The notes under the pieces were generated by a model. It did no database searches and was not told the DNA's origin. It saw nothing but the letters and a program-made list of their open reading frames with translations. Made by a program: the position numbers and the translations under genes. From assembly GCA_964358615.1 (NCBI GenBank), contig CAYHOV010000002.1:1-44076 (forward strand): a DNA stretch of 44,076 nucleotides, written 5' to 3'. Below, piece by piece: positions 16,345 through 40,580 of this stretch. The DNA comes from Candidatus Woesearchaeota archaeon. Lineage in GTDB: Archaea > Nanobdellota > Nanobdellia > Pacearchaeales > GW2011-AR1. Position 1 is the first letter of the stretch. Every line of letters begins with the position of its first letter.

Positions 16345-17250
16345 ATGCCAGAAAAAATTAATCTAACATTTCTCGGAACAGGTTCTGCAATACCTACTGC
16401 TAGACGCAACCATCCATCAATACTTCTTTCCTATAAAGACGAGAACATTCTCGTCGATTGCGGCGAAGGCACTCAACGACAATTTCGCATCGCTCATCTA
16501 AACCCGTGTAAGATTACTCGAATTTTAATAACTCACTGGCACGGCGACCATGTTCTAGGATTACCCGGTCTATTCCAGACTCTCATGCTCAATGGATATA
16601 CAAAAACATTGCAGATCTATGGCCCACGAGGAACAGCGAGGATGATCCAAGTCTATCAGACTTTTTTCACGCATAAAGATAAATTATCTATTCAAGTCCA
16701 TGAGATAGAATCCGAAATTGTTTTTGAAAATTCAGAGTTCATAATAAATGCACAGCCGATGAACCACGAAACTCCCACACTGTCCTATTCATTTACAATA
16801 AAAGAAAAAAACAGGATAAATAAAGAAAAATTAGAAAAACTGAAAATCCCTTCAGGCCCGATGATAGCAGAATTAGCAAAAGGAAAGACAATTGAAGTCG
16901 ACGGCAAAAAAATATACGGCAAAAAATTGATTTTCACCGAGCCTCAAAGAAAAATATCTTTTATAGCAGACACGCTATACAACACGAACTGCATAAAACT
17001 TGCTCAAAATTCAGATATAGTTATATCCGAATCAACCTATGTCGACGAAGAATTAGACTTGGCCAAAGAACATCTTCACCTGACCTCAAGCCAAGCAGCA
17101 GAGATCGCAAAAAAATCAAAATCAAAACAGCTTATATTGACTCATTTATCCCAACGCTATGATTCAGATAATACTCAAGTTCTAAAACAAGCAAAAAAAG
17201 TTTTCAAGAATACTACCATCGCAAAAGACTTTGATACAGTAGAACTATGA
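16345..17250 (+). CDS. rnz: Ribonuclease Z (tRNA 3' endonuclease, metallo-beta-lactamase fold)
   Basis: LTFLGTGSAIPT..., the ILITHWHGDHVLGLPGL histidine motif, C-terminal LILTHLSQRY, length 301 aa. Confidence 0.85.
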   Translation: MPEKINLTFLGTGSAIPTARRNHPSILLSYKDENILVDCGEGTQRQFRIAHLNPCKITRILITHWHGDHVLGLPGLFQTLMLNGYTKTLQIYGPRGTARMIQVYQTFFTHKDKLSIQVHEIESEIVFENSEFIINAQPMNHETPTLSYSFTIKEKNRINKEKLEKLKIPSGPMIAELAKGKTIEVDGKKIYGKKLIFTEPQRKISFIADTLYNTNCIKLAQNSDIVISESTYVDEELDLAKEHLHLTSSQAAEIAKKSKSKQLILTHLSQRYDSDNTQVLKQAKKVFKNTTIAKDFDTVEL

Positions 17251-18131
17251 AAAAAAAATTATTTTTAAAAATCCTCTATGCTCCCTTTTGGTTAATTGGA
17301 AAGGTCGTCTGGCTCGTCGGAAAAGGCCTCTGGTTACTTGCTAAAGGAATTTATTCTGCATCAAAATACACATTCACAAAAGCCAGCGAATATCGTAAAA
17401 AAAATAAAATAAGAAAATCCAAGCCCCAATCTCCTCCGAGTCAGATAGAATTAAAAGAACTCAAGACTATTAAAGGAAATTTTGAAGAATTCCTCAAGAC
17501 ACTATATTCAAAAGGAAAAATAGGCATAATCCTCGGTGGCCGAGGCACAGGCAAATCTGTTCTTGGCATGAGAATTTTAGAAAATGTTGCTTCATCCGAA
17601 AATCCTTCCAATTCATCCGTTAGGATTTTTGGAAACAGAAAACCGCAGTTTTCTGTTAAAACCAAAGTCTATGCCATGGGCTTCGATGAATCAAAATTTC
17701 CAGAATGGATAACTCCAATCAACGATATAAAAGAGATAAAAAACGATTCCCTGGTCTTAATCGACGAATCCGGAATAACATTTTCATCTCGCGACGCCAT
17801 GAGCAGCTCCAATAAATTACTTTCAGAACTTCTGCTGATTACACGCCATAAAAACATTTCAGCACTGTTCATAGCACAAAATTCATCGAACATAGAAATA
17901 AATATCCTCAGGCAAGCAGATTATCTCCTGCTCAAACCGCACTCCCTGCTTCAGCTAGACTTTGAAAGAAAAATAATAAAATCCGTCTACGAAAAAATAT
18001 CAGCCCAATTCTCCAAATTCAAGGAAAGAGGCACAACTTACATTCACTCCAATGACTTCCAAGGTTTTATCTCCAACGAACTTCCAAGCTTCTGGTCCGA
18101 AGGATTAAGCAAGAGTTTCTCGAGTAAATAA
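17247..18131 (+). CDS. Membrane-anchored P-loop NTPase, Zot/pI-like
   Basis: N-terminal hydrophobic helix, Walker A GGRGTGKS, Walker B LVLIDESG, then ITRHKNISALFIAQNSSNIE resembling the Zot-family RH..D.i.i.Q block. ATGA overlap with rnz. Confidence 0.55.
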   Translation: MKKKLFLKILYAPFWLIGKVVWLVGKGLWLLAKGIYSASKYTFTKASEYRKKNKIRKSKPQSPPSQIELKELKTIKGNFEEFLKTLYSKGKIGIILGGRGTGKSVLGMRILENVASSENPSNSSVRIFGNRKPQFSVKTKVYAMGFDESKFPEWITPINDIKEIKNDSLVLIDESGITFSSRDAMSSSNKLLSELLLITRHKNISALFIAQNSSNIEINILRQADYLLLKPHSLLQLDFERKIIKSVYEKISAQFSKFKERGTTYIHSNDFQGFISNELPSFWSEGLSKSFSSK

Positions 18132-18586: not shown

Positions 18587-18762
18587 GACCCTCTTGCGTA
18601 CCGCACCTTAAAAGAGGTAGTTTGTTCGAACAATTCGCTTTTGATATTATTCTTGATTTGTGAAAATCAAAAAGCAAATTGTGAGTAGTCGGATTTTTGG
18701 AGGACAGGAAAAAATCAGCATAACAAACCGCAGTCTAAAGACTGCGGATTTTTTCCTGTATT
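18587..18762 (+). ncRNA. Candidate structured sRNA, copy A of an intergenic element family
   Basis: TATA-like AAATTTAAAAAA at 18552-63. Core at 18704-18759: outer stem ACAGGAAAAAAT/ATTTTTTCCTGT enclosing hairpin CCGCAGTC-TAAA-GACTGCGG, followed by a T-run. About 90 percent identical to copy C across the core. Confidence 0.4.
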
Positions 18763-18960: not shown

Positions 18961-19560
18961 TTAAATTGCAGTTGCAGTAGCCGTGATAAGATCGCCTTTT
19001 GCACCAGGAACCGCATCTGAAGGAATTACTATTCTAAAGTCAATTCTTAACTTGTCTTTTGTATTGTTATATACAAAATCGTTACAGATATTTAGATCTG
19101 CTGTCGTATTTACAGGATAAAATGATCCTTCAGTAACATTGACAACAGTACAGCTTCCAGCTTCAGCATTTGTGAAGTTCCATTGATATTCAGGATTAGT
19201 TCCGCCGATGAATTCAGCTGCAGTTTTTCCAGCTTTGAAGGCTAAAGTAACATTAGTATTGCCAATGTTCTCTAGGGTCAAACCCGTATTGTTTGCACTC
19301 CAATTTCCACCTGTTACAGTTCCGCTAGCAGTATTAATTGTAGCATTTGCTTGTCCATAAGCTACCTGCCCAGAACCAAAGTTGAGGTTGTCTATCGTAA
19401 AATTAATCGCAGTCAATGATTCTATAGTTAAATTCACAGTCGCTGTATCTGTTGCATAACCTGTTATTGTCCCGACTCTATCAAGACTGACGAACATGTT
19501 AAAAACAGCTACAATCACTGCAATGATTCCTAAAAGAAGTATAAAGTTATTACTCTCCAT
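18961..19560 (-). CDS. Membrane-anchored/secreted beta-rich protein (199 aa), possible fibre or pilin-like subunit
   Basis: N-terminal hydrophobic helix (FILLLGIIAVIVAVFNMFV), then a T/N/G-rich beta-type sequence ending in RIDFRIVIPSDAVPGAKGDLITATATA. 11-nt overlap with the upstream 69-aa gene. Confidence 0.6.
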   Translation of the reverse strand: MESNNFILLLGIIAVIVAVFNMFVSLDRVGTITGYATDTATVNLTIESLTAINFTIDNLNFGSGQVAYGQANATINTASGTVTGGNWSANNTGLTLENIGNTNVTLAFKAGKTAAEFIGGTNPEYQWNFTNAEAGSCTVVNVTEGSFYPVNTTADLNICNDFVYNNTKDKLRIDFRIVIPSDAVPGAKGDLITATATAI

Positions 19561-19759
19561 ACCACCATACCTCTTGAGAATCCTGTGCCTGCGGATATAC
19601 GATCAAACCAATAGTTCCTGCGCCCATATCTCCGCCCCAGGCTTTCGCCTTAGTCGATTGTAGATCATTGACATTCAACGTCAAAGTCACTGCAATCGAT
19701 ACAACGGATAATACTATAGCGATTACTAACAAGAAAACAATTGTTTTATCTGATACCAT
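19550..19759 (-). CDS. Small membrane-anchored protein (69 aa)
   Basis: N-terminal TM helix (IVFLLVIAIVLSVVSIAVTLTL). Overlaps the next gene. A TATA-like box lies about 20-28 nt upstream. Confidence 0.5.
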   Translation of the reverse strand: MVSDKTIVFLLVIAIVLSVVSIAVTLTLNVNDLQSTKAKAWGGDMGAGTIGLIVYPQAQDSQEVWWYGE

Positions 19760-19844
19760 CTCTTTTGTTTTTTTATAAAATTTAGTTAATTATAGATATA
19801 TATTCTCCTTTATAAATATTTGTTTTTCTCGAGGACATCAAAAA

Positions 19845-20036
19845 AACAATGGGGCACCGCACCATAAATGGTGCGGTTTGTAAAGCCCCTTGTTTTTGGA
19901 AAAAATTTCACTCTTGTTATCTTTATTTTTTTATTCTCAAGAGTAAAATTTTTTGAGACAGAAAACGGGAAGTTGCGAAGGCAACTTCCGCAGCCTAAAG
20001 GCTGCAGTTTAAGACCGTTTTCTGTATTATTTTTTC
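19845..20036 (+). ncRNA. Candidate structured sRNA, copy B of the element family
   Basis: TATA-like CTTTATAAATA at 19808-18. 5' module at 19851-19889: GGGGC[ACCGCACCA-TAAA-TGGTGCGGT]TTGTAAAGCCCC. Core at 19958-20025: outer stem ACAGAAAACGG/CCGTTTTCTGT enclosing hairpins GAAGTTGC-GAAG-GCAACTTC and GCAGCC-TAAA-GGCTGC, followed by a T-run. Confidence 0.4.
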
Positions 20037-21253
20037 CTTCTAGCCACTAGTCTTCTCCAGAAAACAAACCACAGAACATTAATTAATATTAGTATGATTA
20101 CAAATATCAGAATTACTTCTTTTATACTGATTGTAGAACCACTTTTAGCAGAACCAATGACATAACCCACTCCCTGAATATCCATATTATTTTGAGTAAT
20201 CTTCAATACTAAGTCCCTATCAGTACTTTTTTTATCATATTTTACTAAAAGTTTTCCACGATATTCTCCCTCTTGCACGCCCATAGTATCCCAGAAAGCG
20301 ATTAGCTCTTTTTTGCTTAATGCAGGCACACTTTCAGTGGCAGATTTTATATCAGCCACAGAATGTTCTTTATCGTCATAAACAAGAAGATTCGCAAACA
20401 CTGTCTTAAATTCCTCATCCCACTTATTTTCAACAGAAATACTTAGCTTAACAATTTCTCCCAATCTAAAGTCGTTGACAAATATCCTATCTATTGCTAA
20501 ACTCTCTTTTCCAAGTTCAAATTCTTTTTCAAAATCCTTGCTCTCTCCGTCATAAAATACTCTGACTTTGGCCAAATAATTTCCAGGAGTAGCATTCACA
20601 AACCATTTCGCAACAAGTTCTGCCCTGGCTCCTGCGATTACCGAAGAAGAATCACTTTCAATGCTCGCAATTTTTTCATTCTTCAGATTATAGATATCAA
20701 TTGTCGCTTTTGCGTCGTTAATTCCAAGCTTGCCTCTATTAATAATAGGAACTACAAATGTTGCTGTAGAATTCTGCTCTGCATTTACAACACTTAAGTC
20801 AATATCAATGCACTTTCCAGGACAAGGCACGTAAACAAATAATTGCGAGACAACCGCAACAGTTGCTCCGACAAAAGTTCCAGATTCTTCATCTGTTTTT
20901 GGGATCTCCATTACTACAATTTCAGCAACATGTAAACCCGGCTCTTTAGCAAGCCTATCAGGAAGTTTTATTTTATATTTCAACTGTTTTCTTTCCTCAT
21001 CAAAATTAAATTCCATCAAGTTCCTCGACAGAATTATAGAATCATTTAATTCACCCTGGACATAGATACTGGTTTTCATATCTTTATTCTTATTATTGAG
21101 AACATCGAGTGTGATCTCCTGCTCCTGTCCTCCTTTGTAATCAAGACTAATTCTGCCAGGAGTAATTCCTAAAGCAGAAATAAGAGAGATATTTGCTAGG
21201 ATTAAAAATACAAAGACAGATACTGCTGCTAAAAATCTATACTTTTTATCCAT
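20027..21253 (-). CDS. Surface protein with signal peptide, tandem beta-sandwich (CARDB/NEW3-like) domains and a C-terminal TM anchor
   Basis: The start is moved to MDKKYRFLAAVSVFVFLILANISLISALG, with GGAGG a few nt upstream. C-terminal anchor VILIFVIILILINVLWFVFWRRLVARRKK. 8-nt overlap with the upstream gene. Confidence 0.65.
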   Translation of the reverse strand: MDKKYRFLAAVSVFVFLILANISLISALGITPGRISLDYKGGQEQEITLDVLNNKNKDMKTSIYVQGELNDSIILSRNLMEFNFDEERKQLKYKIKLPDRLAKEPGLHVAEIVVMEIPKTDEESGTFVGATVAVVSQLFVYVPCPGKCIDIDLSVVNAEQNSTATFVVPIINRGKLGINDAKATIDIYNLKNEKIASIESDSSSVIAGARAELVAKWFVNATPGNYLAKVRVFYDGESKDFEKEFELGKESLAIDRIFVNDFRLGEIVKLSISVENKWDEEFKTVFANLLVYDDKEHSVADIKSATESVPALSKKELIAFWDTMGVQEGEYRGKLLVKYDKKSTDRDLVLKITQNNMDIQGVGYVIGSAKSGSTISIKEVILIFVIILILINVLWFVFWRRLVARRKK

Positions 21254-21716
21254 TCTGCCTCCCGACGTATTTTCCTTCATCTTCGATTGTTTGAGTTTCG
21301 TTTGGGTCAAGCACAATATGTCCCGCCAAAATACCGCCTTTATCTCTTGTGATATTTACTCTAACATTCCCCATATTTACAAGTTCTGTATCATTATTCT
21401 CCCTTTCTATATTCAACCCGACCTCACTGTCGACGCTAAATCTATTTTCAAAACCCTCGAGCAAATTATTTCTCGCTTTCCAATAATAAACTCCGGGTGC
21501 TAATCTTAAAGACAGATTTTCCTTGATCTCGACATATTTTGCATCTGAAAAATCCGGACTCTGAGAAATCACAATAATCTTTGTGTTACTCGAATTAAAA
21601 TTCACAACACTGCCCAAAACATTTACCGAAATCCGAGGATAAGAAGCAAACACAAACAGCAGAATTCCAAATATTAAGATCGCCTGCACAATCACAATTA
21701 TTTTTGTAGTTACCAT
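21246..21716 (-). CDS. Membrane-anchored small protein (156 aa)
   Basis: N-terminal TM helix (IIVIVQAILIFGILLFVFA). Its ATG directly abuts the giant gene stop (TAAATG). Confidence 0.55.
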   Translation of the reverse strand: MVTTKIIVIVQAILIFGILLFVFASYPRISVNVLGSVVNFNSSNTKIIVISQSPDFSDAKYVEIKENLSLRLAPGVYYWKARNNLLEGFENRFSVDSEVGLNIERENNDTELVNMGNVRVNITRDKGGILAGHIVLDPNETQTIEDEGKYVGRQNG

Positions 21717-24700
21717 TTAATCAATTCCAGTATAAGGTTCCCCCAAACTTCCTGTAAAGACTACTGTTGAAAGTTTATTTCCAGCAGGTTCATCTGCAGG
21801 AATTTTTACAAGCAGATCAACAGAGACATTATTGCAACCAGATTGATAACCCGACGTAAAATTCATACGATTTATTGCCCTCGCAGTCAACAACGGAGCA
21901 TCATTCCACGAGACCAATGTTCCCGAATCTACAAAACATCCTGAAGTAGTATTTCTTATCTTAAATTGGAAATAACTGCTAGGATTTGAAGCAGAAGAAA
22001 ATAAGTTAGTAAAATTTACAGAAATATTTGTCTGAACATTACCATCATTCTGCAATACAAAAGGCCGAGGGTCATCTAAGGAGGTATTTTTGCTCTCAGA
22101 TAAATTCATATTCTCAAACAAAATATAATCCGTAGGAAGGCTTATAACAATATTTGATTGTATTGAAATATTTCTCGGAACAGCCCATACTCCATAAACT
22201 TGGCCATCATTCGCCCTCGCAGTCCAATTATAATAATAACCATTATCAATTAAATACTCTAGATAAGCAGGCACAGTGTAGTTCGTAGACGAATTAATAG
22301 TATTGTTTTCATAATATCTATTTCCAAGAGAGCAGGTCCCGCCTCCACTATACAAGCAAGTCAAATTTAATTCATAGCTCAAAGCATCACCATCATCGTC
22401 GCTGCCGCTATAATAAAATGTCGGCGTTCTATTTGTCGTAATATTTCCATCATTTGGAGAAATTAGCGTTACTGTCGGAGGAGTATTTAATATTGTCAGG
22501 TTCCCGCTAAAACCAAAACTCGAATAATCAAGGCCATCAAACAACCTCAGACCGCAGCTCCAATTCTCCCCTTTTGTAGTATTCGCATCATCAAGAACAG
22601 CGATAAACAAACTTCCATTTGCATAACTATTATTATAATCCATCGTCAAATTCAAAGTTCCATTATTATACCATCTGACTGTAACATTCATCTTGTTGAG
22701 ATCTACATCAGTGATATTTGCAAAACAATTCAGATCAGCTTTTGTCCTGTTGCTTCCATCTGTTGAATTTATCGTCACTGCAGGAGTATTTGGTGCGGTA
22801 TTTCCTGCGATTATATCTAATGTTCTTATGTCTGTCATATTCTCTCGAGCATTTGTATCTTTAACATAGGAATAATAAGTATAATCTCCTAAACTTAAAT
22901 TACTTTTATTGACGCTAAACTGCCATTGATCAACATCTGTCCTATGTAAAGAAGAAGAATATAACATCCGGATTTCATCATCTGTCAAGCTTCTATTCCA
23001 AATTCTTAATTCGTCCAAACTTCCATTTATTCCAGCTCCGCCAGTGCCTCCGCCAATATTAAGATTACCCAATGAAGAATTGACAACTCCGGTAAAATTA
23101 TCAGAAGTTCCTTCTACGCCATTCATGAATATCCTCAGGTCAGTTCCATTGTAAGTAGCAACTACATAATTCCAACTATTAAGCGGAACCGCAGAGAAAT
23201 AAGCTTTGTTATTGATATAATGATTGACATAGAAATTTAAAGTACCATCCTCAAAAAAGAAAAGCCCATAGCCATCAGTCCAACTATATACAGAAGTCTT
23301 CATAGCTAAAATACCATACTGAGTAGTAGATCCTACCTTAAACCAAGTAGCCAAAGTCATTTCTCTGCTGATATTCAGCGAAGGAGAATTAGAGATATTA
23401 AAATAAGGGCCGGTATTAACCGAACCAAAGCTATACGCTCCTCGATAATGTCCTCCAGAAATATCAAACGAAATATTACCCGTAGCTGTTGCATCATTAT
23501 TATATTTACTCAAATCTTTTACATAAGTGCTATTCTCACCTAAACTTGAAATATTATCAAAATCCATCATCAGCGCAAGACTCTCGTCGAATAAAGTATA
23601 GTTTGTAGAATTCCAATTGAATATAAATTTATCAATCCCCATTTCAGTTATAGAAACATTGAATATGAAAGATCTATTTGACGTCGTTGTTCCATTTGCG
23701 GGCGTCGGATCACTAAATGAAATAAGGGGATAAGCAGTATCAACAAAAATTCTTCGCGTTTCAGTAGAATTATAATTTCCAAGATTATCATAGGCATCTG
23801 CACTCAGCAGATAAACTCCGTCGCTAAGCCCGCTAAAATTTATAAATAATGGCGAGCTTGTCGAGTTGCTCCAATTTACAAGACTGCCAGTTGAATTGTA
23901 AAGATAAATACTTACATTTTTCAAACTCGACTCAATCGCAGTCACATTCGCTAAAATATAATTTCTATAGACAAAACCAGCACTATCTGTAGGAGTTACA
24001 AAATCTATTTGAGGCGGAGTGAGATCCCGGATAAACCAACGAGTCTCAGTAGTATTTTCATTACCTAAAGAATCTTTTGCCGACGAGAAATAATTATATA
24101 TTCCCTCGTCCAATCCGCTAGTTAAATTTTTAGTCTGATTCACTTGAAGATACCATTGGCTATTATTATATTTTTCCAAATTCATTTGATAATTTTGAAC
24201 AACTTCGTCTTCACTCAAACTTCTATTCCAGATCCTTACTTCATCAATCATTCCGTCCCACCATCCACCAGGCCAATCACCAAGATTTCCTCCAATCCTT
24301 ATGCTGCCAGTATTGGGAATATTTCCAGAATAAGCAGCATCTGTTCCTTTTTTGCCGTTGACATAGATTCTAAGTGTAGTCCCATTGTAAACTCCGACGA
24401 CCTGAGCCCATTCACCAGTATTGATTCCAGCAGATGCTTTCGGACTTCCACTTGAACCGACGTAAAAATATATAGCATCAGCCCAATAAAATCCCCAGCC
24501 ATTCCCCCAACCACTATCAGCATCTCTTCCAATTATAGTCTTATAGACGCTAAAACTATTAGCATAGACCCATGAAGAAACAGTCATCGCAGTCCCGTTA
24601 GTATTATTTACCGAACCTAAATTAATATAGTCTCCATTTCCGTCGAACTCGATCGCTCCGCCGTATTTTCCGCTCTTAGTTGGCTTTGCATTGATGATAG

Positions 24701-27700
24701 TTCCATTCGTCGAGCTAGCTACGTCAACAGCATAGGTCGAATTTTCACCGATAGCAGAATTATTATTGAAATTGAACATTGTCTTCAATGTCGAATCAAA
24801 AATTGTATAGTTCGTCCCATTCCAATTATATTTTACTTCTGCTAAATTTGCTTCTGTTATTGAGACATTAATTTGTACAGTGGTATTTGTCATCGCTGTA
24901 CCATTGGCCGGCGTAGGATCTACAAAATTTATTCCAGGAGGAGTCCCATCTCCTGCTTCTCCATTTAAAGTGATGCTGTTTGTCAATAATTTTGGCGGGA
25001 ATGGCCCGATAGCAGTAGTGAGATTCACCATATACTGGACATAATTTCTAGGCAATAGGCTAGAGATATCAGAATAAGTATTGTTTTTCACGACAATATC
25101 CCACCCGCTTTTATCTGAACAATCAGAAGTTGTACAAGATCTGATAGCGATGCTGATATTATTTATTGTACTATTAAAATCCGCGTCCCAGGAAATATTT
25201 TTCCATGCAACAGCAGTTCCCATATTTTTTACATTCGAATGATAATAACCTTCATACATTGAATTAGTTATAAAAATAAAATGAGAGGTCTGATTAAATT
25301 CTGCTTCAGAGTAATTTCCTAAATTCCAGCCGCTGAAACTGTAATTTGAATCTGCAAATCCGCATGCTCCAGAACTATCGCATGCTCTACAATTCCAGAT
25401 ATATTCAGAATCCTTTACAGAATAATTGCCGACGACATTTTTCATATCAAAACTAAAATTACTCGAGTTGGAAGTTCCTGAAATATTTTTTGTTTCATTC
25501 AAATACCAAGAACCGCCGATATTTGTATACAGAGAAATATTTACAAGATTATTAGTTGAATTAACAGAGCAATTGAGCGTGACATTTCCTAAAAGATTGA
25601 TGGTATGATTGTTATTCTGCGGATAATTTAAAGTCACATTAATTCCAATGACTTCGATAATTTCTTGACTTATTGTCACATTCCACGTCGAAGTCATATT
25701 GCCCACATTCATTCCCGCAGTCAGATTTGCAAAAACAAAAAACTCATAACTATCATTAATGTTTCCTGTAGCATTCACAAAAAAAGTCACAAGCCGTGAT
25801 TCTCCATTGTTCAAAGTAAGATTATATGGATTTTGTGTAATTGTATAAAATGGGGTTTCAGAAGAATTCATTGAAATCAATCCCTTGACAAATACTTGTT
25901 TTATTATTACATAACCGTCTCCTAAATTTATTCCAGATAAATTTGTCTGATTAGCTCCAGTATTATACGAGCCTGCTCCTCCCCCTTGTCCATGGCCAGC
26001 CCATCCTCCTCCGCCGCCTCCTGAATATCCTCCGCCGCCCCCTGCTCCGACATAAGTTCCTGCTCCTCCTCCAAATCCTCCGTCATGCCCACCATTATCT
26101 CCTGCTCCTCCTGCTCCTCCTTCTAAAAAACGTTTTCCTCCACGAGAACTACTGCCGCCGTTAGTTAACCAACCAGCTCCTCCTCCACTATAAACGCCCG
26201 CACCGCCTCCGCTTCCATTAAGACTGCCGACGCCAAACTGGCTGACTGTCCCATTCATTCCCTGAGTAGTATTTTGACCATCTGCATCACTTGTCGTCGA
26301 GTAATCGCCTCCGCCTCCGCCGCCTCCGGCGATGATCAATGGATTATTATTTTTTACTACAAAAGTTCCACCACCCCCGCCAACGCCTCTTGTACCTCCA
26401 GTATTGTTTGTTCCAGCTTGTCCGACTAATATTTGAAGTACTTCCCCCTGGACTAAATAAAAATAACCTTGTATTCTTGCACCTTTTCCTCCGGGATATT
26501 GCGGAGGATTTCTAGCACCTTCAGCTCCATAGACATCAATAAAATAAGTTCCATTTGCAGGAACAGTCCAATTTTGTATTCCATTGCTTACGTCGACAAG
26601 TCCGGATAAAGTTGTCCCAGAATAATTAGAATTGCATAAAGTTTGATTTGGTCCAAGTCTTCCGGATTTATTACAGGTCGTAAATCTATATTCTGTAAAA
26701 TTTGTAGGATCAAGACTTACATTTATCTCTCCGCAATTTCCACCAGAACAAGAAACATTTAAAGTCACATTAAATAGTTTATATCGCGAAACATTTACAT
26801 TTGTCGTCGGATAGATCAAATCCAATCCAATTCTGAGAGAAGTTAAAGTAAAAGTTACATTCGTAGAATTCTCATTTCCACGCGAATCATTACAATATAC
26901 TGTCCAAGTATTTGAACCTTCAACACTATACGCATTTGTAAAATTAGTCCCCATTGCAACAGCACTCGAGTTTGTCAATCCTCCGTCGATAGAATACCAG
27001 CAATAAGCTTTATTCAATTCAATAAAAGTATAATTTAATTCGCTGATGTTATAATAATAGATAGTATTCTGCGGATAGATTATATTCATCGCAGGATAAA
27101 TTACGTCAAGTATCTTCAATGGCAAGAAATCCGTGATTCCGCCTGTAGTGTAATTCGTATCGCAGATGCTGTCTCCATCGACATCAGTGCAATTATCTGA
27201 AAATCCCTGCGAAGAAAGATTTGTCCAGAAATTCCCGCCAAGATAACTTCCATTCACAATACTTGTTCCTGCTGTTTTTGTAGTGTTCCAGAAAGAAGCA
27301 GAACTGGTCGCAGAAATTATTTTATTTATAAATCCAATATAATTATTAAATATTCTATTCGAAGTACTCGATGATAATAAGATAGCATAGCCAGTATTAG
27401 AATAAAATGTGTTTGAAGTGATATTATTTAGATCTCCGGTAGCGATATTTAATCCGTCGCCAGTATTAGAACTGATTGTATTAGCAGTAACAATATGACC
27501 TCCATTAGTGACCATAGTTATTCCATTTCCAGCATTTGAACTAATATTATTTCCAGAAATATTGCTGCCTATTCCCGAGACATAAACTCCAGCACTTCGA
27601 CCATTTGAAATATTATTATTAAAGACAACAGGATTATTTCCAGCTAAACTAAGACCATAACCTCCATTTGAGCCAATAGTATTATTATATATAAAAAGTC

Positions 27701-30700
27701 CGGGAGTACTAGTTAAAGCATTTATTCCCCTAAGTAAATTAGAACTGATTGTACTTGATTTTATAGTAAGATTTTTATTTCCCCCATCAGTATATATTCC
27801 ATCCAGGCTATTGTTATTCGCAATAACAGAATCCAAAGTATAATTAGATAATGCAGAATAAGCACTGAAAAACCAAAATCCATAATAATTATAGCTAGAG
27901 TTGACATTCGTAAATGTAAGATTAGTAGTCTCTATGATAGATATAGCATTATTCAATAGAGTATCAGAACCACTGACCGTCACATTGGTAATACGTGAAT
28001 TAGATGCGCTAACTCCTACAAAAAGTAATTGTGAAAAATTTTGATTTGATATGTTCACAGTTTGATTATAATAGCCGATCAATCTTCTACCAGAACCATA
28101 GCAATTGTCAAATATGTCATTGTAGATAGCAGGAGCACCATAGGTATAGACATCCATCTGTGCGCTTTCTGTAAAATTAGAATTATTCATGACATTCGCA
28201 CCATTGCTATTAAGATAAATTCCATACTGCTCATTAGAATTAGCCGAGACATAATTAAGATTATTTTTAAGTCCACTGACCCTGAATCCATAAAGATTAT
28301 AATCCGCACTGACAGAAGTTAAATTATTGTTATTTGAACTGAGTATCCAAACTCCATATTGAGTATTATTATCTGCACTCATATTTGTCACAAGATTAAG
28401 ATTCGAAGACGTTGTAAGATAAGCCCCATTAACATTATTTATATTGACACTTATATCACTAAGATTATTCTTTGAAGAAGCAGTAAGATAAACACCAGTA
28501 TTCGAATTATTATCTGCAAAAATCGAATTCAGCAGATTATTATGGCTTGTATCCAAATAAACCCCATAGGTATTATTATGGGTAGTTATATTTGTCAAAC
28601 TTGAATTTCCTGCAGAAAGCAACGATATCCCGTCCTGAGCATTATAAATAGAAATAATATTCTTGAGCGTATCATTGGTGCTTGTCTGGATATAGACTCC
28701 TGCATAATAATTCCTATCAAATATCGAAGAAGTTATATTTGTGAAAGAGCTTGATGAAAAATAAATTCCATAATCTCCTCTGCTTGAATTTACATTATCT
28801 ATAGTTCCATATTTATTAGATAAGAAATAAATTCCATATCTGCCCAAGCCATTACCTGGCGCTGTTCCTTTTTGAACTCTGCAATTTTTTACATGAGTAT
28901 TATTATAATTTGAGGAAATTCCAGCATAAAGCGTCGACACAGTATTATTTCCGTAGATGATAAGATTATCCCAGCTCTGACAATCTAGAGTTACATTATC
29001 TGCAGTCACATTGAAGCAAGTAAAATTTGTAGAAACACTATTAGCTAAAGTATAGGTAGTATTGGCGATGCTGAGCGGTCTGCACGAATCAATATTTGTG
29101 CCCATATTCCTATTGAATATTACGCTCGTCGAATTAAAATTTCCAGCAGAATCATTGCAATATAAATTCCAAGTATTAGAACCCTCAACACTCGGCACAT
29201 CTGTGAAATTTGTTCCCATTACAGCATTGCTTGAATTAGTGATTCCTCCGTCAACAGAATACCAGCAGAAACCGCCGTCAGGATCATCAGAAGTATATGT
29301 CAAAGTAGATACATTAAGATACCATGTTGAGTTGGAAGGATAGACAATTCTCAGCGACGGTGCAATAGTCGAAATAAACTTTAAGCAGACAGAGATATTT
29401 TCAGGAGTATTATTGCAGCTTGAGACATGGGCATTTGTTTGATTCGACAGAGTGAATGCGCAGACCCAACCAGTAGGACAGGTTCCGTTTAGAGGCTGGA
29501 AACTTACATTCGCAGTATAATCAGTAGTGTTAGACCCAAAATAAATCAGATAAGGATAATCGTCACTGCTCATATTCCCCATCTCAGCATGAGCATTTGT
29601 ATAATTTGAAAGTCTGGCGATAGTCACGCCAGTATTATTTTTTACAGCGACGACGTTTCTCGTATCTCTGCAACAAGAAGAACGGCCATAATCCGCACTG
29701 CTCTGATTCACAACTTCTGCATGGGCATTTGTATAATTGCTCATTCTCAGCATCACGGTCCAGCCAGCAGGACAATTTCCAGTTACGACCTGGCAAGTCA
29801 GATTTGGAGCAATAGGATCGACGACATAATCCAAGTCTACATTTCCGATCATCCTCAGATCAAAAACATCCTCAGGAACAGTTAAATTAGTCAGATAGAC
29901 TTTATACCAGCTCTCTCCAGAAACATTTTCAAATACAGCAATAGTTTCATTCTGATTATTTACATAGACCTCGATGCTTGTAGAATTTCCATCACTCGAT
30001 CTTCCATAGATACTGATATCCTTTGAGCTGTCCAATTCCTGCTCAAACGTTACTCTCAGATAATGTCCACTAGGGATCGTCGTCCAATTATTATCCTGCG
30101 CCTTGACATAATCATATACTTCTTCGATAAAAGTTCGATTTTCGTCAAGATGTTCTGCTTTTGTGATATAGATCACATCATATGTCTGATTCGATAGATG
30201 TTCAACATTCCACTCAATATAATCAATAAAACCGTCGCTGTCAAGATCAGAAGCATTAAAATCAACTTCAACTCGCACAATCTCGCTTAAATTTTCCCGA
30301 GTGTCAATATTTTCAGTAGGAGAAATAATATCTAAAGTATTATTTATTTCTTCAGTCAAGTTCAAAGATATATTTTCAATGACTTGACCAGTCATAATTA
30401 CTCGGAAATCTTCAGAAGAATTTGTAATATTTTCAGAAACATTGTTGCTATTGATTAAAGATTCATTGCTACTATTGTTCTCAGAAATAATATCGCTAAA
30501 ATTATAAATATTAATACTATCATTAAAGGTCAGATTATTTAGATTACTTGAATTACTCTTATTAAGAATAATCCATTCACTTGAATTAGTCAAATTCTCT
30601 TCGAAAATAATAACCGAATTATTTGCAACATTGTTTGTAATATTAATATAACCATACTTGATTGCGTCTGCCCGTGTAGTATACCAATAAACTTTTATTC

Positions 30701-32210
30701 TTGAAATATAATCATTCTTTATTGTTGAACTCTCTATGAGAGTATAGGCCAAAACATTGCTATAATTTAATTCATCAGCCGCACCGACAATGACTTTTTT
30801 TCCCGTTCTCATATCTTCCTCAAAAGCCCGCGCAGCAGGAGTATAGTATTCAACCGCAACCTCGTCAACATTTTGTTCTTTAGCGATTTTATCTGCGTCG
30901 ATTATTTTCTTGTTCTCCACTTCAATAATGCTATCACTAAAATTATTTTCCTCGAATATTGAAGCGCCAGTTATTGGCCAAAACGAAAAAAAGCTGAATA
31001 ACTTACCGAATATTGAATTCTCCAGATTAAAAATAATCCCGCCGGTGATAGTTGATCCAAAATTATTGGACGTTTCTGCCTCGCTGAAAGCTCTTTCTGC
31101 TTCATTGCCGGTTTTGATAGTGATATTCTCTGCCTCTTTTGGGATTTCTATATTGACATTCTGATCTCCAATGATGCTTGCTTTCTTGATCCACTTGACA
31201 GGCCTTCCGATGACTGCTCTGAATTGCCTTACGCTGATATTTCCAGAATCTTGCGTCAGATTAAAAAAACTTTCATTTTTTAGAGTTTCATTAAACAGAG
31301 TATAATTAAAAAGAGTTTGATTTGTCTGATTAAGATTGATCTCGCTCTGGTTTATTTCAATACTCATAATACTCATATTTGTACTGAAATTAAAGAATCT
31401 CAAACTTTGATTAGTAATATTTTCATTTAAAAGACTTTCATTATTTGCAGTGTTTGAGATATTTAGAGTTAAGTTGCCCGACCCCCCGCTGCCAACAAGA
31501 GTTTCATTTTCAACAAGTATATTTTCAGAAGAATTATTGCCAGAATTGTTAGAACTGATATTTGTTTGACTGAAATTTTGATTTATTGTGGGATTTATTG
31601 TTTGGTTCAGGTCTACACTCTCATTGACCAAAATATTTTCATTTCCGCTATTATTTGATATAGAAATAATTTCAGGATTTTCAACTGGCTGTTCTGTTTC
31701 TGGATCGATATAAGCTGCTTCCTGCAATTGATTTTCAGTACTTGTATCTTGAGAATTAGTAGATTCTTGAGAGCTTGTATCTGGGCCTTGTGTAGAAGTA
31801 CTTTCAGAAGATGATGGTGTCTCTTCTGAAGATGTAGAAGAACTCTCCCTGCTTGAAACACTTGAACTTGATTGAGTCTCAGGATTATATTCAGAACTTG
31901 TCTCAGTTCCTTCTAAAACCAATCCAGATATTTTATTATAGACCGAGTCTGTTAAACCAACAATACTTTTCAAGATGACCTCTGGAAATTTTTGACTAGA
32001 ATTAATTTCACTATGTAGAACAACCATAAAAACAGATAATGAAATAAGGACGACAAGAAAGCTTGGTATCAAAATTTTTTTGCTTACTGAAAAAGTTTTT
32101 GCTTTTCCTAGATATCTTTTTTTTACCTTGCCATTTTTGTCTCGATAACTCTCATAGATGTAGGGGCCATAGGTCTTACCTCTTTTTGTAACAACTCTTT
32201 TATGACTCAT
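21717..32210 (-). CDS. Giant (3497 aa) mosaic surface protein: basic cytoplasmic N-terminus, TM helix, S/T-rich linker, Cys-bracketed NAH repeats, Ig-like modules, a long parallel beta-helix (PbH1-like) region, an ALK-like glycine-rich domain and two LamG/ConA-like domains
   Basis: Uninterrupted 10.5-kb ORF. N-terminus KRGKTYGPYIYESYRDKNGKVKKRYLGK followed by a TM helix. Beta-helix repeats (NTYGVYLDTSHNNL.., NTQYGVWILSSNNNNL..) at about 27230-29090. LamG-like ends IDEVRIWNRSLSEDEV (about 24200-24700) and LDELRIWNRSLTDDEI (about 22970-23480). Sequons throughout. Confidence 0.9.
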   Translation of the reverse strand: MSHKRVVTKRGKTYGPYIYESYRDKNGKVKKRYLGKAKTFSVSKKILIPSFLVVLISLSVFMVVLHSEINSSQKFPEVILKSIVGLTDSVYNKISGLVLEGTETSSEYNPETQSSSSVSSRESSSTSSEETPSSSESTSTQGPDTSSQESTNSQDTSTENQLQEAAYIDPETEQPVENPEIISISNNSGNENILVNESVDLNQTINPTINQNFSQTNISSNNSGNNSSENILVENETLVGSGGSGNLTLNISNTANNESLLNENITNQSLRFFNFSTNMSIMSIEINQSEINLNQTNQTLFNYTLFNETLKNESFFNLTQDSGNISVRQFRAVIGRPVKWIKKASIIGDQNVNIEIPKEAENITIKTGNEAERAFSEAETSNNFGSTITGGIIFNLENSIFGKLFSFFSFWPITGASIFEENNFSDSIIEVENKKIIDADKIAKEQNVDEVAVEYYTPAARAFEEDMRTGKKVIVGAADELNYSNVLAYTLIESSTIKNDYISRIKVYWYTTRADAIKYGYINITNNVANNSVIIFEENLTNSSEWIILNKSNSSNLNNLTFNDSINIYNFSDIISENNSSNESLINSNNVSENITNSSEDFRVIMTGQVIENISLNLTEEINNTLDIISPTENIDTRENLSEIVRVEVDFNASDLDSDGFIDYIEWNVEHLSNQTYDVIYITKAEHLDENRTFIEEVYDYVKAQDNNWTTIPSGHYLRVTFEQELDSSKDISIYGRSSDGNSTSIEVYVNNQNETIAVFENVSGESWYKVYLTNLTVPEDVFDLRMIGNVDLDYVVDPIAPNLTCQVVTGNCPAGWTVMLRMSNYTNAHAEVVNQSSADYGRSSCCRDTRNVVAVKNNTGVTIARLSNYTNAHAEMGNMSSDDYPYLIYFGSNTTDYTANVSFQPLNGTCPTGWVCAFTLSNQTNAHVSSCNNTPENISVCLKFISTIAPSLRIVYPSNSTWYLNVSTLTYTSDDPDGGFCWYSVDGGITNSSNAVMGTNFTDVPSVEGSNTWNLYCNDSAGNFNSTSVIFNRNMGTNIDSCRPLSIANTTYTLANSVSTNFTCFNVTADNVTLDCQSWDNLIIYGNNTVSTLYAGISSNYNNTHVKNCRVQKGTAPGNGLGRYGIYFLSNKYGTIDNVNSSRGDYGIYFSSSSFTNITSSIFDRNYYAGVYIQTSTNDTLKNIISIYNAQDGISLLSAGNSSLTNITTHNNTYGVYLDTSHNNLLNSIFADNNSNTGVYLTASSKNNLSDISVNINNVNGAYLTTSSNLNLVTNMSADNNTQYGVWILSSNNNNLTSVSADYNLYGFRVSGLKNNLNYVSANSNEQYGIYLNSNGANVMNNSNFTESAQMDVYTYGAPAIYNDIFDNCYGSGRRLIGYYNQTVNISNQNFSQLLFVGVSASNSRITNVTVSGSDTLLNNAISIIETTNLTFTNVNSSYNYYGFWFFSAYSALSNYTLDSVIANNNSLDGIYTDGGNKNLTIKSSTISSNLLRGINALTSTPGLFIYNNTIGSNGGYGLSLAGNNPVVFNNNISNGRSAGVYVSGIGSNISGNNISSNAGNGITMVTNGGHIVTANTISSNTGDGLNIATGDLNNITSNTFYSNTGYAILLSSSTSNRIFNNYIGFINKIISATSSASFWNTTKTAGTSIVNGSYLGGNFWTNLSSQGFSDNCTDVDGDSICDTNYTTGGITDFLPLKILDVIYPAMNIIYPQNTIYYYNISELNYTFIELNKAYCWYSIDGGLTNSSAVAMGTNFTNAYSVEGSNTWTVYCNDSRGNENSTNVTFTLTSLRIGLDLIYPTTNVNVSRYKLFNVTLNVSCSGGNCGEINVSLDPTNFTEYRFTTCNKSGRLGPNQTLCNSNYSGTTLSGLVDVSNGIQNWTVPANGTYFIDVYGAEGARNPPQYPGGKGARIQGYFYLVQGEVLQILVGQAGTNNTGGTRGVGGGGGTFVVKNNNPLIIAGGGGGGGDYSTTSDADGQNTTQGMNGTVSQFGVGSLNGSGGGAGVYSGGGAGWLTNGGSSSRGGKRFLEGGAGGAGDNGGHDGGFGGGAGTYVGAGGGGGYSGGGGGGWAGHGQGGGAGSYNTGANQTNLSGINLGDGYVIIKQVFVKGLISMNSSETPFYTITQNPYNLTLNNGESRLVTFFVNATGNINDSYEFFVFANLTAGMNVGNMTSTWNVTISQEIIEVIGINVTLNYPQNNNHTINLLGNVTLNCSVNSTNNLVNISLYTNIGGSWYLNETKNISGTSNSSNFSFDMKNVVGNYSVKDSEYIWNCRACDSSGACGFADSNYSFSGWNLGNYSEAEFNQTSHFIFITNSMYEGYYHSNVKNMGTAVAWKNISWDADFNSTINNISIAIRSCTTSDCSDKSGWDIVVKNNTYSDISSLLPRNYVQYMVNLTTAIGPFPPKLLTNSITLNGEAGDGTPPGINFVDPTPANGTAMTNTTVQINVSITEANLAEVKYNWNGTNYTIFDSTLKTMFNFNNNSAIGENSTYAVDVASSTNGTIINAKPTKSGKYGGAIEFDGNGDYINLGSVNNTNGTAMTVSSWVYANSFSVYKTIIGRDADSGWGNGWGFYWADAIYFYVGSSGSPKASAGINTGEWAQVVGVYNGTTLRIYVNGKKGTDAAYSGNIPNTGSIRIGGNLGDWPGGWWDGMIDEVRIWNRSLSEDEVVQNYQMNLEKYNNSQWYLQVNQTKNLTSGLDEGIYNYFSSAKDSLGNENTTETRWFIRDLTPPQIDFVTPTDSAGFVYRNYILANVTAIESSLKNVSIYLYNSTGSLVNWSNSTSSPLFINFSGLSDGVYLLSADAYDNLGNYNSTETRRIFVDTAYPLISFSDPTPANGTTTSNRSFIFNVSITEMGIDKFIFNWNSTNYTLFDESLALMMDFDNISSLGENSTYVKDLSKYNNDATATGNISFDISGGHYRGAYSFGSVNTGPYFNISNSPSLNISREMTLATWFKVGSTTQYGILAMKTSVYSWTDGYGLFFFEDGTLNFYVNHYINNKAYFSAVPLNSWNYVVATYNGTDLRIFMNGVEGTSDNFTGVVNSSLGNLNIGGGTGGAGINGSLDELRIWNRSLTDDEIRMLYSSSLHRTDVDQWQFSVNKSNLSLGDYTYYSYVKDTNARENMTDIRTLDIIAGNTAPNTPAVTINSTDGSNRTKADLNCFANITDVDLNKMNVTVRWYNNGTLNLTMDYNNSYANGSLFIAVLDDANTTKGENWSCGLRLFDGLDYSSFGFSGNLTILNTPPTVTLISPNDGNITTNRTPTFYYSGSDDDGDALSYELNLTCLYSGGGTCSLGNRYYENNTINSSTNYTVPAYLEYLIDNGYYYNWTARANDGQVYGVWAVPRNISIQSNIVISLPTDYILFENMNLSESKNTSLDDPRPFVLQNDGNVQTNISVNFTNLFSSASNPSSYFQFKIRNTTSGCFVDSGTLVSWNDAPLLTARAINRMNFTSGYQSGCNNVSVDLLVKIPADEPAGNKLSTVVFTGSLGEPYTGID
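25893..26699 (-). other. Domain within the giant protein (aa 1838-2106): TNF-like plus glycine-rich (polyglycine) module resembling the ALK/LTK extracellular TG domain
   Basis: FTTCNKSGRLGPNQTLCNSNY, GIQNWTVPANGTYFIDVYGAEG, LQILVGQAG, GGGGGTFVVKNNNPLIIAGGGGGGG, GGGGGYSGGGGGGW, DGYVIIKQV. A local GC-rich island in an AT-rich gene. Confidence 0.6.
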
Positions 32211-32240
32211 TCAGAAAAAAACCACCAATTTTCATATAAT

Positions 32241-32341
32241 TTTGTAGAACAACCAATTTAAATAGGTTTTGCTCTGCAAAACCTTTCATTCAATTAAAAC
32301 TAGACTTAAAATTTCCAGAAATTTTTGTAGAACAACCAATT
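32241..32341. repeat. Perfect 18-nt direct repeat (tttgtagaacaaccaatt) at 32241-32258 and 32324-32341, each abutting a TATA-like AATTTAAA/AATTAAAA box upstream of the giant gene
   Basis: Read directly. 83-nt spacing. On the coding (minus) strand each unit reads T(T)TAAATTGGTTGTTCTACAAA. Confidence 0.8.
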
Positions 32342-32389
32342 AAAAGATTAAGAATTCTCTTTGTTATCACCAACTCTCTCTTTCAAATC

Positions 32390-32512
32390 ACAAAACCCTC
32401 TTTGTATACTGCCCTTTAAAAGGTGTGGTTTGTTTGTTGGGTTTTGGGAAGACAGGAAAAAATCTGCATAACAAACTGCGGTCTAAAGGCTGCGGATTTT
32501 TTACTGTATTCA
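32390..32512 (+). ncRNA. Candidate structured sRNA, copy C of the element family
   Basis: Core at 32452-32507 aligns base for base with copy A. All three differences in the inner stem are transitions that create G-U pairs on the plus-strand RNA only. Confidence 0.4.
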
Positions 32513-32591
32513 TCAATTTCTCCTTGAAACCTCTCTATTTCTTTTCTCCAATAATCACAAAAACCGGGTTAATTTATTCGGTTTTTGGGAG

Positions 32592-32615
32592 ACAGAAAAC
32601 AATTTTGTTTTCTGT
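32592..32615 (+). repeat. Minimal member (copy D) of the element family: hairpin ACAGAAAACAA-TT-TTGTTTTCTGT with the family 5' flank TTTTTGGGAG
   Basis: Shares the TTTTTGGGAGACAGAAAAC...GTTTTCTGTAT termini with copies A-C. Confidence 0.6.
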
Positions 32616-32703
32616 ATCATGGTAGTGTCTTTTCTACCAGAAAGAGTTTTCAATTTCAGTTTATGCTTTTCTTTTTGCCTTTCCAGACCCTCAATTCTCT
32701 TTT

Positions 32704-40465: not shown

Positions 40466-40580
40466 GGGTCCCATAGTATAGTGGCAGAACAGCTCTTTGA
40501 CGAATTCATGAGATTTCAGGAATTTCCAGAAATCTTGATTTCAAGATGGAGCAAGCCCAGGTTCAATCCCTGGTGGGACC
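40466..40580 (+). tRNA. tRNA-Val (GAC) with a ~44-nt intron (about 40502-40545)
   Basis: Acceptor GGUCCCA/UGGGACC plus A. D arm GUAU-AGUGGCA-GAAC (one mismatch). Anticodon stem GCUCU/GGAGC, loop UUGACG.. T arm CCAGG-UUCAAUC-CCUGG. The intron boundaries and anticodon assignment are hand-derived and less certain. Confidence 0.65.

Follow-up and report, generated by a model that had tools for sequence, protein, structure and literature searches.

A syntenic five-gene surface-protein module of DPANN archaea with a 3497-residue protein and a shared C-terminal domain

This study concerns a cluster of five genes on contig CAYHOV010000002.1 of a Candidatus Woesearchaeota archaeon (assembly GCA_964358615.1), which was analysed within a stretch of 44,076 nt with a GC content of about 35%, referred to here as the window. 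In the order in which they are read, the genes encode proteins of 3497, 156, 408, 69 and 199 residues (Table 1), the first of which is called the giant. The cluster is one example of a five-gene module that is syntenic in more than 60 species-level genomes of DPANN archaea of the Pacearchaeota/Woesearchaeota type, and the genes and their arrangement are real, far beyond what chance would produce. The last ~145 residues of the giant, designated X, are homologous to the whole mature 199-aa protein, and the module is considered below as a possible surface display system.

All five open reading frames (ORFs), called co-directional in a preliminary description made from the sequence alone, lie on the minus strand, and the zero or negative spacing that it had noted behind the giant was confirmed: the stop codon TAA of the giant is followed immediately by the ATG of the 156-aa gene, and the 156-aa and 408-aa genes overlap by 8 nt (ATGGATAA). 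The third gene had been described as a 429-aa gene with this overlap and with GGAGG upstream; the overlap and the upstream sequence (GGGAGG, 5 nt before the ATG) stood, and the length did not, as 429 aa is the product of a mechanical ORF call from an upstream TTG at 21316, whereas the ATG within the 8-nt overlap gives 408 aa. The shorter length was adopted because a 99%-identical database protein has 408 residues and relatives of 398–448 aa match it. A spacer of 267 nt, the length given earlier, separates the 408-aa gene from the 69-aa gene, and the overlap of the 69-aa/199-aa pair amounts to 11 nt. The hydrophobic anchor or signal that had been claimed for the start of every product was found in all five as an N-terminal hydrophobic segment, which is also a helix in the AlphaFold2 (AF2) models of the 408-aa and 199-aa proteins, and which in the giant comes after a basic cytoplasmic head of 44 aa.

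A relative is encoded by 117 species-level genomes, and 78 loci were fetched from distinct species-level genomes; stop-to-stop translations of the related loci (labelled L001–L082) were scored with family hidden Markov models (HMMs). Upstream of the 408-aa homologue, 63 of the 66 loci with enough upstream DNA have an ORF that ends in X, and a member of the 156-aa family is found at most 2.5 kb upstream in 61 of 72 loci, being directly adjacent in 52. Of the 62 loci with enough DNA downstream of the 408-aa homologue, 46 have a member of the 199-aa family there and 43 a member of the 69-aa family. Two long contigs keep the order of a large gene followed by genes of ~155, ~410, ~63 and ~200 aa, and the named relatives all come from metagenome-assembled genomes (MAGs) of Pacearchaeota, Woesearchaeota or Nanoarchaeota. 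Even where the 408-aa protein has diverged to 32% identity, the gene order, the coding sequences that abut or overlap and the strict C-terminal position of X are still kept. The earlier proposal had been made to depend on synteny between the small genes and a large gene upstream of them, and this synteny was seen throughout dozens of species.

For the 408-aa protein, more than 249 full-length homologues were found, at 50–61% identity. A word-indexed search gave 79 homologues of the 199-aa protein, the family of which comprised 2177 clusters at 50% identity when 1.84 billion representatives were scanned in full with its HMM. None of the homologues of these two proteins has a Pfam domain or is informatively named, and Pfam and NCBIfam searches with all five proteins of the window gave nothing above threshold for the four small ones and passenger domains only for the giant. 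Selection on the small ORFs, examined for the 408-, 199- and 156-aa genes, is purifying, with ratios of nonsynonymous to synonymous substitution rates (dN/dS, NG86) of about 0.1–0.3 (median 0.11 for the 408-aa gene, median 0.14 for the 156-aa gene and 0.09–0.34 for the 199-aa gene), although these figures are rough, dS often being saturated. The reality of the 69-aa ORF is attested by the conservation of its family and motif only. In the most divergent loci (L073–L082, 32–35% identity) the 156-aa gene went undetected and the X-tailed gene lies 3–81 nt from the 408-aa gene. Two MAGs contain two divergent copies of the module each, L007 and L045 in JAHIEM01 and L009 and L052 in CAZJPU01, in which the 408-aa homologues of the paired copies are ~57% and ~36–39% identical to the protein of the window, so that each of these small genomes maintains at least two paralogous systems.

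The relationship between the end of the giant and the 199-aa protein can be seen by eye (LQNDGN in the giant tail and LENIGN in the 199-aa protein; IPADEPAG and IPSDAVPG, respectively), and was recovered by profile comparison. Using hhalign, a profile of the 199-aa family aligned with the giant tail with Prob 94% and an E-value of 1.4e-7, and a profile of 51 upstream-protein tails aligned with the 199-aa family with Prob 99% and an E-value of 3.9e-18 over 138 columns, spanning residues 40–196 of the 199-aa protein, which is approximately its entire mature part. The tail HMM matches the 199-aa protein of the window at 3.2e-10. In every X-tailed relative X ends 0–10 residues before the stop codon, while X-tailed ORFs that are complete measure between 422 and 3497 aa, with many more cut short at over 3000 aa. 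The X tail, joined to a variable passenger, is thus the constant feature of the upstream protein and giant size is not, so that the earlier placing of a giant at the core of the locus stands as regards a conserved large upstream gene and fails as regards the giant itself, which is not obligatory, partners starting from 422 aa. As an adjacent 199-aa gene is absent from ten of the 47 loci with at least 5 kb of downstream DNA, the obligatory pair consists of the X tail and the 408-aa protein and does not include the would-be polymer subunit. In the giants, X is connected to a conserved Ig-like (immunoglobulin-like) domain (YYYNWTVRAxDG..YG.W) by the strand RNISIQS, the equivalent of the one that opens the mature 199-aa protein.

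The passenger of the giant is composed of beta-helix repeats, two Laminin_G_3 domains, Ig-like domains and a Gly-rich region (Pfam E-values of 4e-45 for Laminin_G_3 and 3e-30 for Beta_helix). The Gly-rich block, with GGGGG runs and repeats, has no Pfam match and is reminiscent of the glycine-rich domains found in ALK/LTK-type or phage proteins. The basic head carries the motif KRGKTYGPYIYESYRDKNGKVKKRYLG, which is common to the giants in L001, L032, L034, L037, L049 and L071, has the consensus K(R/N)GKxYGPYxYE(S/T)xRxxGKVxxxYLG and is absent from shorter X-tailed proteins; we take it to be similar to the N-terminal hairpins of some transposases. The window holds a second giant of 2610 aa, which shares repeat modules with the 3497-aa gene; the tail HMM found no X tail in it, the region downstream of its gene lying outside the window.

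The 408-aa protein is the most conserved component of the module, with a mean column identity of 61%. Its AF2 model, with a mean predicted local distance difference test score (pLDDT) of 86.7, is an ordered beta fold of three beta-sandwiches between an N-terminal helix and a C-terminal transmembrane helix, which is followed by the basic tail WRRLVARRKK. The tandem beta-sandwiches, the C-terminal transmembrane anchor and the basic tail of the preliminary description were therefore all recovered, the number of domains being three and not two. When 44 members of the family were searched against Pfam, matches to WxLIP_HBD (20 of 44, best 4e-5), CARDB (18 of 44) and WxLIP_PGBD (four of 44, best 3.4e-4) recurred, all of them below threshold, and no usher or PapD_N/C domain (PF00345/PF02753) was found in these members or in the cluster proteins. 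A Foldseek search of the PDB with the model gave hundreds of matches to tandem Ig-like proteins (ciliary ASH-type, complement MG, RbmA and factor XIII), among which the WxLIP of E. faecium (PDB entries 9i1y and 9i25) stands at rank 18–21 with an E-value of 9e-8 and a template-modelling score (TM-score) of ~0.4. A claim that the 408-aa protein belongs to WxLIP as a specific homologue was considered and rejected, since the matches are recurrent but sub-threshold and no better than those to CARDB and generic Ig-like folds. We propose that the 408-aa protein serves proteins with an X domain as membrane anchor, as dock or as a tethered chaperone.

The 199-aa protein is likewise predicted to be an ordered beta fold with high confidence (AF2, pLDDT 90.1), and its C-terminus reads as it had been quoted. 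Two Cys residues in the beta-sandwich are conserved in the family, as is the mature N-terminus, TDTGTVNLTI, and in the monomer model the region of this conserved strand (residues 29–51) is not packed as a strand. The best Foldseek matches in the PDB were TLP-1a/b (E-value 1.1e-3, TM-score 0.35–0.40), followed by PapE, CS20, FimF/G/A and Caf1, the pilins at E-values of 5e-3 to 0.15; all of these matches are weak, with TM-scores of 0.35–0.5. WxL, TasA, thread and cannula subunits were absent from the top 50 matches, the WxL, TasA/camelysin (Peptidase_M73), SCPU and fimbrial families of Pfam matched none of 42 members of the 199-aa family, and searching PDB sequences with a profile yielded nothing meaningful and no sequence link to TLP-1. 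The idea that the protein is a pilin-like subunit built by strand complementation, put forward in the preliminary description, is thus echoed in the top PDB folds (TLP-1, PapE and Fim), at weak scores. A motif TG[YFKRN][AS] after the N-terminal helix, followed by a short alternating beta-strand, is shared by large surface proteins and the 199-aa family and is missing from the 69-aa family; we take this TGxA motif as the probable signal-peptidase site of the lineage, or else as a shared sorting signal.

The 69-aa protein has little more than a transmembrane helix and a strand, both conserved in the family alignment, with an unconserved linker between them. The strand motif, G-x-[VI]-x-[LV]-x-[IV], is the motif that opens the mature 199-aa protein, and the jackhmmer profile of the 69-aa family also matches the first ~60 residues of 199-aa-family proteins. 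As a rule, a 69-aa gene directly precedes each gene of the 199-aa family, and the two are duplicated together: the 199-aa gene is present in 0–4 copies per locus, and the 69+199 pair is often tandemly duplicated as a unit. A strand-only transmembrane protein cannot fold alone, which argues for strand addition in trans. The 156-aa protein has an N-terminal transmembrane helix and a beta-rich ectodomain; its family aligned with the last 330 aa of the giants with Prob 74% and an E-value of 2.9e-5 over 105 columns (hhalign), so that it is probably a paralogue of the penultimate Ig-like domain of the giant together with the connecting strand and the first strands of X. Compared with the 408-aa and 199-aa profiles the 156-aa family showed similarity in the transmembrane helix only, and a Pfam scan of the family gave nothing consistent. 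An apparent fusion of the 156-aa protein and a giant in L079 was reinterpreted as this homology between the 156-aa family and the tails of giants.

The giant contains 227 N-x-S/T sequons, which corresponds to 6.5 per 100 aa, compared with 5.0 in the 199-aa protein, 3.2 in the 156-aa protein, 1.0 in the 408-aa protein, none in the 69-aa protein and 0.7–1.4 in cytoplasmic controls. Because of these densities and the levels of conservation, the sequences suggest that the giant and the 199-aa protein are exposed, glycan-coated outer parts, and that the 408-aa and 69-aa proteins are shielded and close to the membrane.

The spacer between the 408-aa and 69-aa genes is structured, as had been described, with an RNA fold of −86.1 kcal/mol against −43.8 ± 4.4 kcal/mol for shuffled sequences (z = −9.65). 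Its three strong, terminator-like hairpins are followed by a TATA-like box, TTTATAAA, ~50 nt ahead of the 69-aa start, and the spacer would serve as a terminator or attenuator with a separate promoter for the 69/199 pair. Owing to this succession of hairpins and box, the cluster is probably divided into two transcription units, giant-156-408 and 69-199, and the single operon envisaged earlier was not retained. In the relatives the same intergenic gap is just ~80–105 nt. An Rfam search of the window gave tRNAs only.

A hairpin element occurs in four copies of the same orientation that bracket and split the cluster, and nowhere else in the window. It has an outer stem ACAGRAAAA...TTTTYCTGTCYTCC and an inner hairpin CTGCRG..CTGCGG; two of the copies form a direct repeat of 75 nt with 88% identity, and the motif TTTTYCTGTMYYCC has three matches against 0.23 expected. 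The element was found in none of the 82 related loci nor in the GTDB genome collection; it resembles a terminator or attenuator, but could be a lineage-specific repeat or RNA motif. That the 75-nt repeats bound a mobile element is unlikely, given that there is no integrase, that the synteny with LSm and RNase Z genes is kept in L001/L002 and that extra copies lie inside and upstream of the cluster. Just upstream of the giant start, a 36-nt direct repeat with 86% identity (two copies 83 nt apart, core TTAATTGGTTGTTCTACAAAA) may be a duplicated promoter or regulator-binding site.

Table 1. Positions of the genes, domains, motifs and neighbouring features in the window
Feature	Position (nt)	Strand	Remarks
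Giant, 3497 aa	32210..21717	minus	ORF call; basic cytoplasmic head, one transmembrane segment (~residues 44–66), mosaic passenger, terminal X domain
Head motif of giant	32079–32210		Giant residues 1–44
Gly-rich block of giant	~25960–26390		Giant residues ~1940–2085
X domain of giant	21750..22181	minus	~Residues 3344–3487; includes leading strand RNISIQS
156-aa gene	21716..21246	minus	ORF call
408-aa gene (third gene)	21253..20027	minus	ORF from overlapping ATG; signal/transmembrane helix, Ig-like sandwiches 33–142, 149–248 and 252–360, C-terminal transmembrane helix 377–407
Structured spacer	19760..20026	minus	Branched hairpin, long AU hairpin, GC hairpin and U-run, TATA-like box
TATA-like box	~19809–19817		Within spacer
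69-aa gene	19759..19550	minus	ORF call; N-terminal transmembrane helix (MVS[ED]K...), variable linker, amphipathic strand, short tail
Strand of 69-aa protein	19592–19618		GTIGLIVYP
199-aa gene	19560..18961	minus	ORF call; signal/transmembrane helix 3–28, TG[YF]A motif, conserved strand, beta-sandwich 52–198
Strand of 199-aa protein	19417–19449		TDTATVNLTIE
TG[YFKRN][AS] motif	19453–19464		199-aa protein, residues 33–36
TG[YFKRN][AS] motif	7775–7786		2610-aa giant
Hairpin element	18688..18762	minus	Downstream of 199-aa gene
Hairpin element	32436..32510	minus	Between preceding nucleotidyltransferase gene and promoter region of giant
Hairpin element copies	~32587–32620, ~19950–20026	minus	Inverted arms/motif
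36-nt direct repeat	32227–32262, 32310–32345	minus	Core read on this strand
Second giant, 2610 aa	71–7903	minus	
Radical-SAM ORF, 739 aa	11594–13813	minus	AmmeMemoRadiSam-type
Zot-like P-loop NTPase	17247–18131	plus	
468-aa protein	33652–35058	plus	C-terminal Peptidase_S74 domain
tRNA match, 96 nt	39265–39360		
tRNA match, 115 nt	40467–40581		

The genes flanking the cluster are housekeeping genes (LSm, RNase Z, nucleotidyltransferases and tRNAs); because of these flanks and the synteny with LSm and RNase Z, the cluster is regarded as chromosomal and not as mobile. A membrane-associated Zot-like P-loop NTPase (sub-threshold Zot match, E-value 7e-4), the gene of which overlaps the stop codon of RNase Z, was considered as a dedicated assembly ATPase and rejected, being absent from the 82 related loci, in which no conserved ATPase was found near the module. 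A 468-aa protein encoded beside the cluster ends in a Peptidase_S74 intramolecular-chaperone domain (E-value 1.3e-11), has weak relatives in L081 and L027, and, the domain being typical of tail-spike and fibre proteins, is probably the product of another surface fibre gene. Further away, a 739-aa radical-SAM ORF stands between AMMECR1-like and Memo-like ORFs, and its Cys motif is, by eye, apparently split by an intein that includes a segment similar to LAGLIDADG (LLGFYCAEGHV). The lengths of two tRNA matches suggest intron-containing archaeal tRNA genes.

Taken together, these observations are read, tentatively and with more doubt than conviction, as a conserved DPANN surface display module, a Sec-dependent, ATPase-less, membrane-anchored complex with a logic similar to that of the bacterial WxL/Csc clusters compared below. 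The large, variable, glycan-coated passenger protein, here of 3497 aa, would be an adhesin, and X, its ~145-aa C-terminal beta-sandwich, would dock on the membrane-proximal 408-aa anchor or tethered chaperone. The small proteins would be pieces of the giant tail, the 156-aa protein corresponding to a transmembrane helix, an Ig-like domain and the start of X, the 199-aa protein to the strand and X, and the 69-aa protein to a transmembrane helix and the strand. Joined to the giant and the dock through beta-strand complementation between molecules, these pieces would make up a hetero-oligomer anchored in the membrane, with the passenger displayed on its outer side. Physical association, strand complementation, the choice of partners, cleavage at TGxA and an adhesive or host-contact role are what we infer for the module, and host attachment would be plausible for a DPANN archaeon.

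Several observations weigh against this display complex. The profile of the 408-aa family found no WxLIP among PDB sequences at E-values up to 10, and the Foldseek matches of the 408-aa model to WxLIP are no better than those to generic tandem Ig-like proteins. The strand that leads into X in the giant may simply belong to the Ig-like domain before it, as the final strand of that domain, in which case no exchange is needed, and the giant, having an N-terminal transmembrane segment of its own, may need no separate anchor. Furthermore, the homology of the 156-aa protein to the giant tail is only moderately supported at the probability given above.

The main alternative, also doubtful, is a donor-strand-exchange pilus without usher or ATPase, in which mature 199-aa subunits would be joined head-to-tail, each donating its N-terminal strand to the X of its neighbour. 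The giant would be a tip adhesin similar to FimH or PapG, the 69-aa protein a plug of the last subunit and base anchor in the membrane, the 156-aa protein an adaptor and the 408-aa protein a platform for assembly or a tethered chaperone. The best PDB folds of the 199-aa model are all donor-strand-exchange subunits, its conserved N-terminal strand is unpacked in the monomer, a strand-only paralogue exists in the 69-aa protein and the parts are paralogous modules, as in chaperone-usher operons. The 69+199 pair, moreover, lies behind terminator-like hairpins and a TATA-like box and is duplicated up to 3–4 times in relatives, in the manner of major and minor pilin genes, and the 199-aa protein is about as rich in sequons as the giant and so probably exposed. 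However, the fold matches are no better than an E-value of 1e-3 with TM-scores of 0.35–0.5, only four residues separate the strand of the 199-aa protein from the next one, so that pairing in cis is possible, and the same strand is present in cis in the tail of the giant. About a quarter of the loci have no adjacent 199-aa gene, none of the Pfam families for PapD-like chaperones, ushers, TasA, SCPU and fimbriae was matched, and the 408-aa protein is permanently anchored by a transmembrane helix, unlike soluble chaperones. The complex is favoured over a pure fibre because the pair of X tail and 408-aa protein is conserved, the 199-aa protein is often missing and the 408-aa anchor is permanent. 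The stronger form of the fibre proposal, in which Pacearchaeota/Woesearchaeota-type DPANN archaea would have a new adhesive donor-strand pilus with a giant adhesin as their organelle of host-cell attachment, is unlikely.

A coat similar to a surface layer (S-layer), with the 199-aa proteins as tiles, the X-tailed proteins as occasional decorated tiles and the 408-aa protein as the membrane stalk, is improbable. It would agree with the SlaB-like layout of the 408-aa protein (signal, beta-sandwiches and C-terminal transmembrane helix), with an abundant X-only family rich in glycan sequons and with the high conservation of the module across the lineage, but a mature subunit of 17 kDa is unusually small for an S-layer, X-only genes are missing beside many clusters and vary from none to four copies, the cluster proteins match no S-layer family in Pfam or NCBIfam, and some genomes contain two divergent copies of the module. 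Finally, the five genes may encode no apparatus, only independent secreted or membrane proteins that share Ig-like domains by local duplication and were kept together by co-regulation or genomic inertia; the physical association of the five proteins is a deduction, Ig-like domains are easily duplicated and the cluster probably forms two transcription units, yet this is very improbable in view of the order, junctions and strict C-terminal X kept to 32% identity, of a 69-aa helix-plus-strand protein for which no autonomous function is plausible, and of the duplication of the 69+199 pair as one unit.

How uncultivated Pacearchaeota and Woesearchaeota hold their partner cells is essentially unknown, and giant proteins are usually mentioned as curiosities only. 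One such giant is now placed in a defined and conserved module of five components lacking annotation, present in at least 117 species-level genomes, no prior description of which in DPANN archaea was found in the literature searched. The 408-aa protein and the X domain offer handles for antibodies, for labelling in cryo-electron tomography and for metaproteomics, and the X tail provides a rule for spotting variable adhesins in metagenomes, namely any protein that ends in X.

Compared with known systems, the module is not an archaeal type IV pilus or archaellum-like filament, which is marked by a class III signal peptide, a prepilin peptidase, an assembly ATPase and a platform protein: as the preliminary description had stated, there is neither a pilin signal nor an assembly ATPase, the [KR]G-hydrophobic prepilin site being absent from the N-termini of the module proteins, no conserved ATPase being present nearby and the neighbouring Zot-like gene being confined to this genome. 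In the Sulfolobales, SlaB is a beta-sandwich stalk with a C-terminal transmembrane helix that holds the large outer SlaA, and in the type IX secretion system (T9SS) cargo that is very large and variable is tagged by a conserved Ig-like domain at its C-terminus. No homology to either system was found, no search having been aimed at it. The module has small paralogues that consist of the domain only and a strand-only protein, which are not known from SlaA/SlaB or T9SS. Its unusual features are this strand-only anchored peptide and the triple-Ig, tail-anchored partner.

The chaperone-usher pili (Fim, Pap, Caf1 and CS20), donor-strand-exchange fibres tipped by an adhesin of two domains, resemble the module in their paralogous Ig-like parts, in an adhesin with a C-terminal copy of the subunit fold, in an N-terminal strand with alternating hydrophobic residues and in assembly outside the membrane without an ATPase. 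In contrast to them, the module has no outer membrane, no usher and no PapD detectable by Pfam, and its candidate chaperone is three-domain and membrane-anchored; membership of this class fails because neither an usher nor the PapD family is present, and the related loci showed no additional conserved gene in the module.

Pyrobaculum bundling pili (TasA-like), Sulfolobus threads and Pyrodictium cannulae are Sec-exported, ATPase-independent filaments formed by strand complementation. These chaperone-free donor-strand filaments of archaea were also compared with the module (PMC12518558). The 199-aa protein matched neither TasA/Peptidase_M73 in Pfam nor equivalents of AbpA, thread subunits or CanA among the top 50 Foldseek matches. 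In the archaeal donor-strand filaments, neither a giant adhesin that terminates in the fold of the subunit nor a triple-Ig membrane partner is known to us. TLP-1a/b (PDB entries 9ikj and 9ikk; CryoSeek) form environmental donor-strand-exchange fibrils (PMC11494351), in which a secreted subunit, with an N-terminal strand that is disordered in AF2, completes a neighbouring subunit's Ig-like domain in the fibril; the protomers use n+4 donor-strand exchange, the relatives are bacterial (Flavobacteriales) and the fold match of the 199-aa protein is marginal.

DPANN archaea have no murein, and the nearest comparison is with a system of Gram-positive type. What defines a WxL cluster is the presence of a small WxL protein, of a large one that has a WxL domain at its C-terminus and of a WxLIP, which consists of two Ig-like domains and a transmembrane helix and for which AF2 predicts insertion of a strand between WxLIP and WxL (PMC10599100). 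In the WxL/Csc clusters of Enterococcus, Lactobacillus and Listeria, the WxLIP has the layout DUF916-DUF3324-transmembrane helix, a small LPXTG protein is present and the peptidoglycan is bound non-covalently. The module differs from them in that its 408-aa protein has three Ig-like domains where WxLIP has two, in that its host is an archaeon without peptidoglycan and in that its 69-aa strand-only protein has no described WxL counterpart. A WxL domain (PF13731, characterized by two Trp-x-Leu motifs) was found in none of the five window proteins at E-values up to 1 (Pfam), no W-x-L pair is visible in the 199-aa protein, the C-termini of the five proteins contain no LPXTG, and the cluster proteins gave no sortase match. 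Since it has no WxL domain, peptidoglycan or LPXTG, the module is not a WxL locus. As an analogy, the WxL/DUF916-like layout suggested by the preliminary description holds better than could be known at that stage, through the terminal domain shared by the giant and the 199-aa protein and a recurrent but faint similarity to WxLIP. The likeness lies in the arrangement: as in WxL/Csc clusters, the last domain of the large protein is the whole mature small protein, here X in place of WxL, and it is accompanied by one or more domain-only small proteins, by a partner with a signal, tandem Ig-like domains and a C-terminal transmembrane helix that is faintly similar to WxLIP in sequence and fold, and by small anchored proteins. 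If this parallel reflects common ancestry or convergence, it would give insight into how cells that have no wall or are covered by an S-layer display surface proteins without covalent anchoring.

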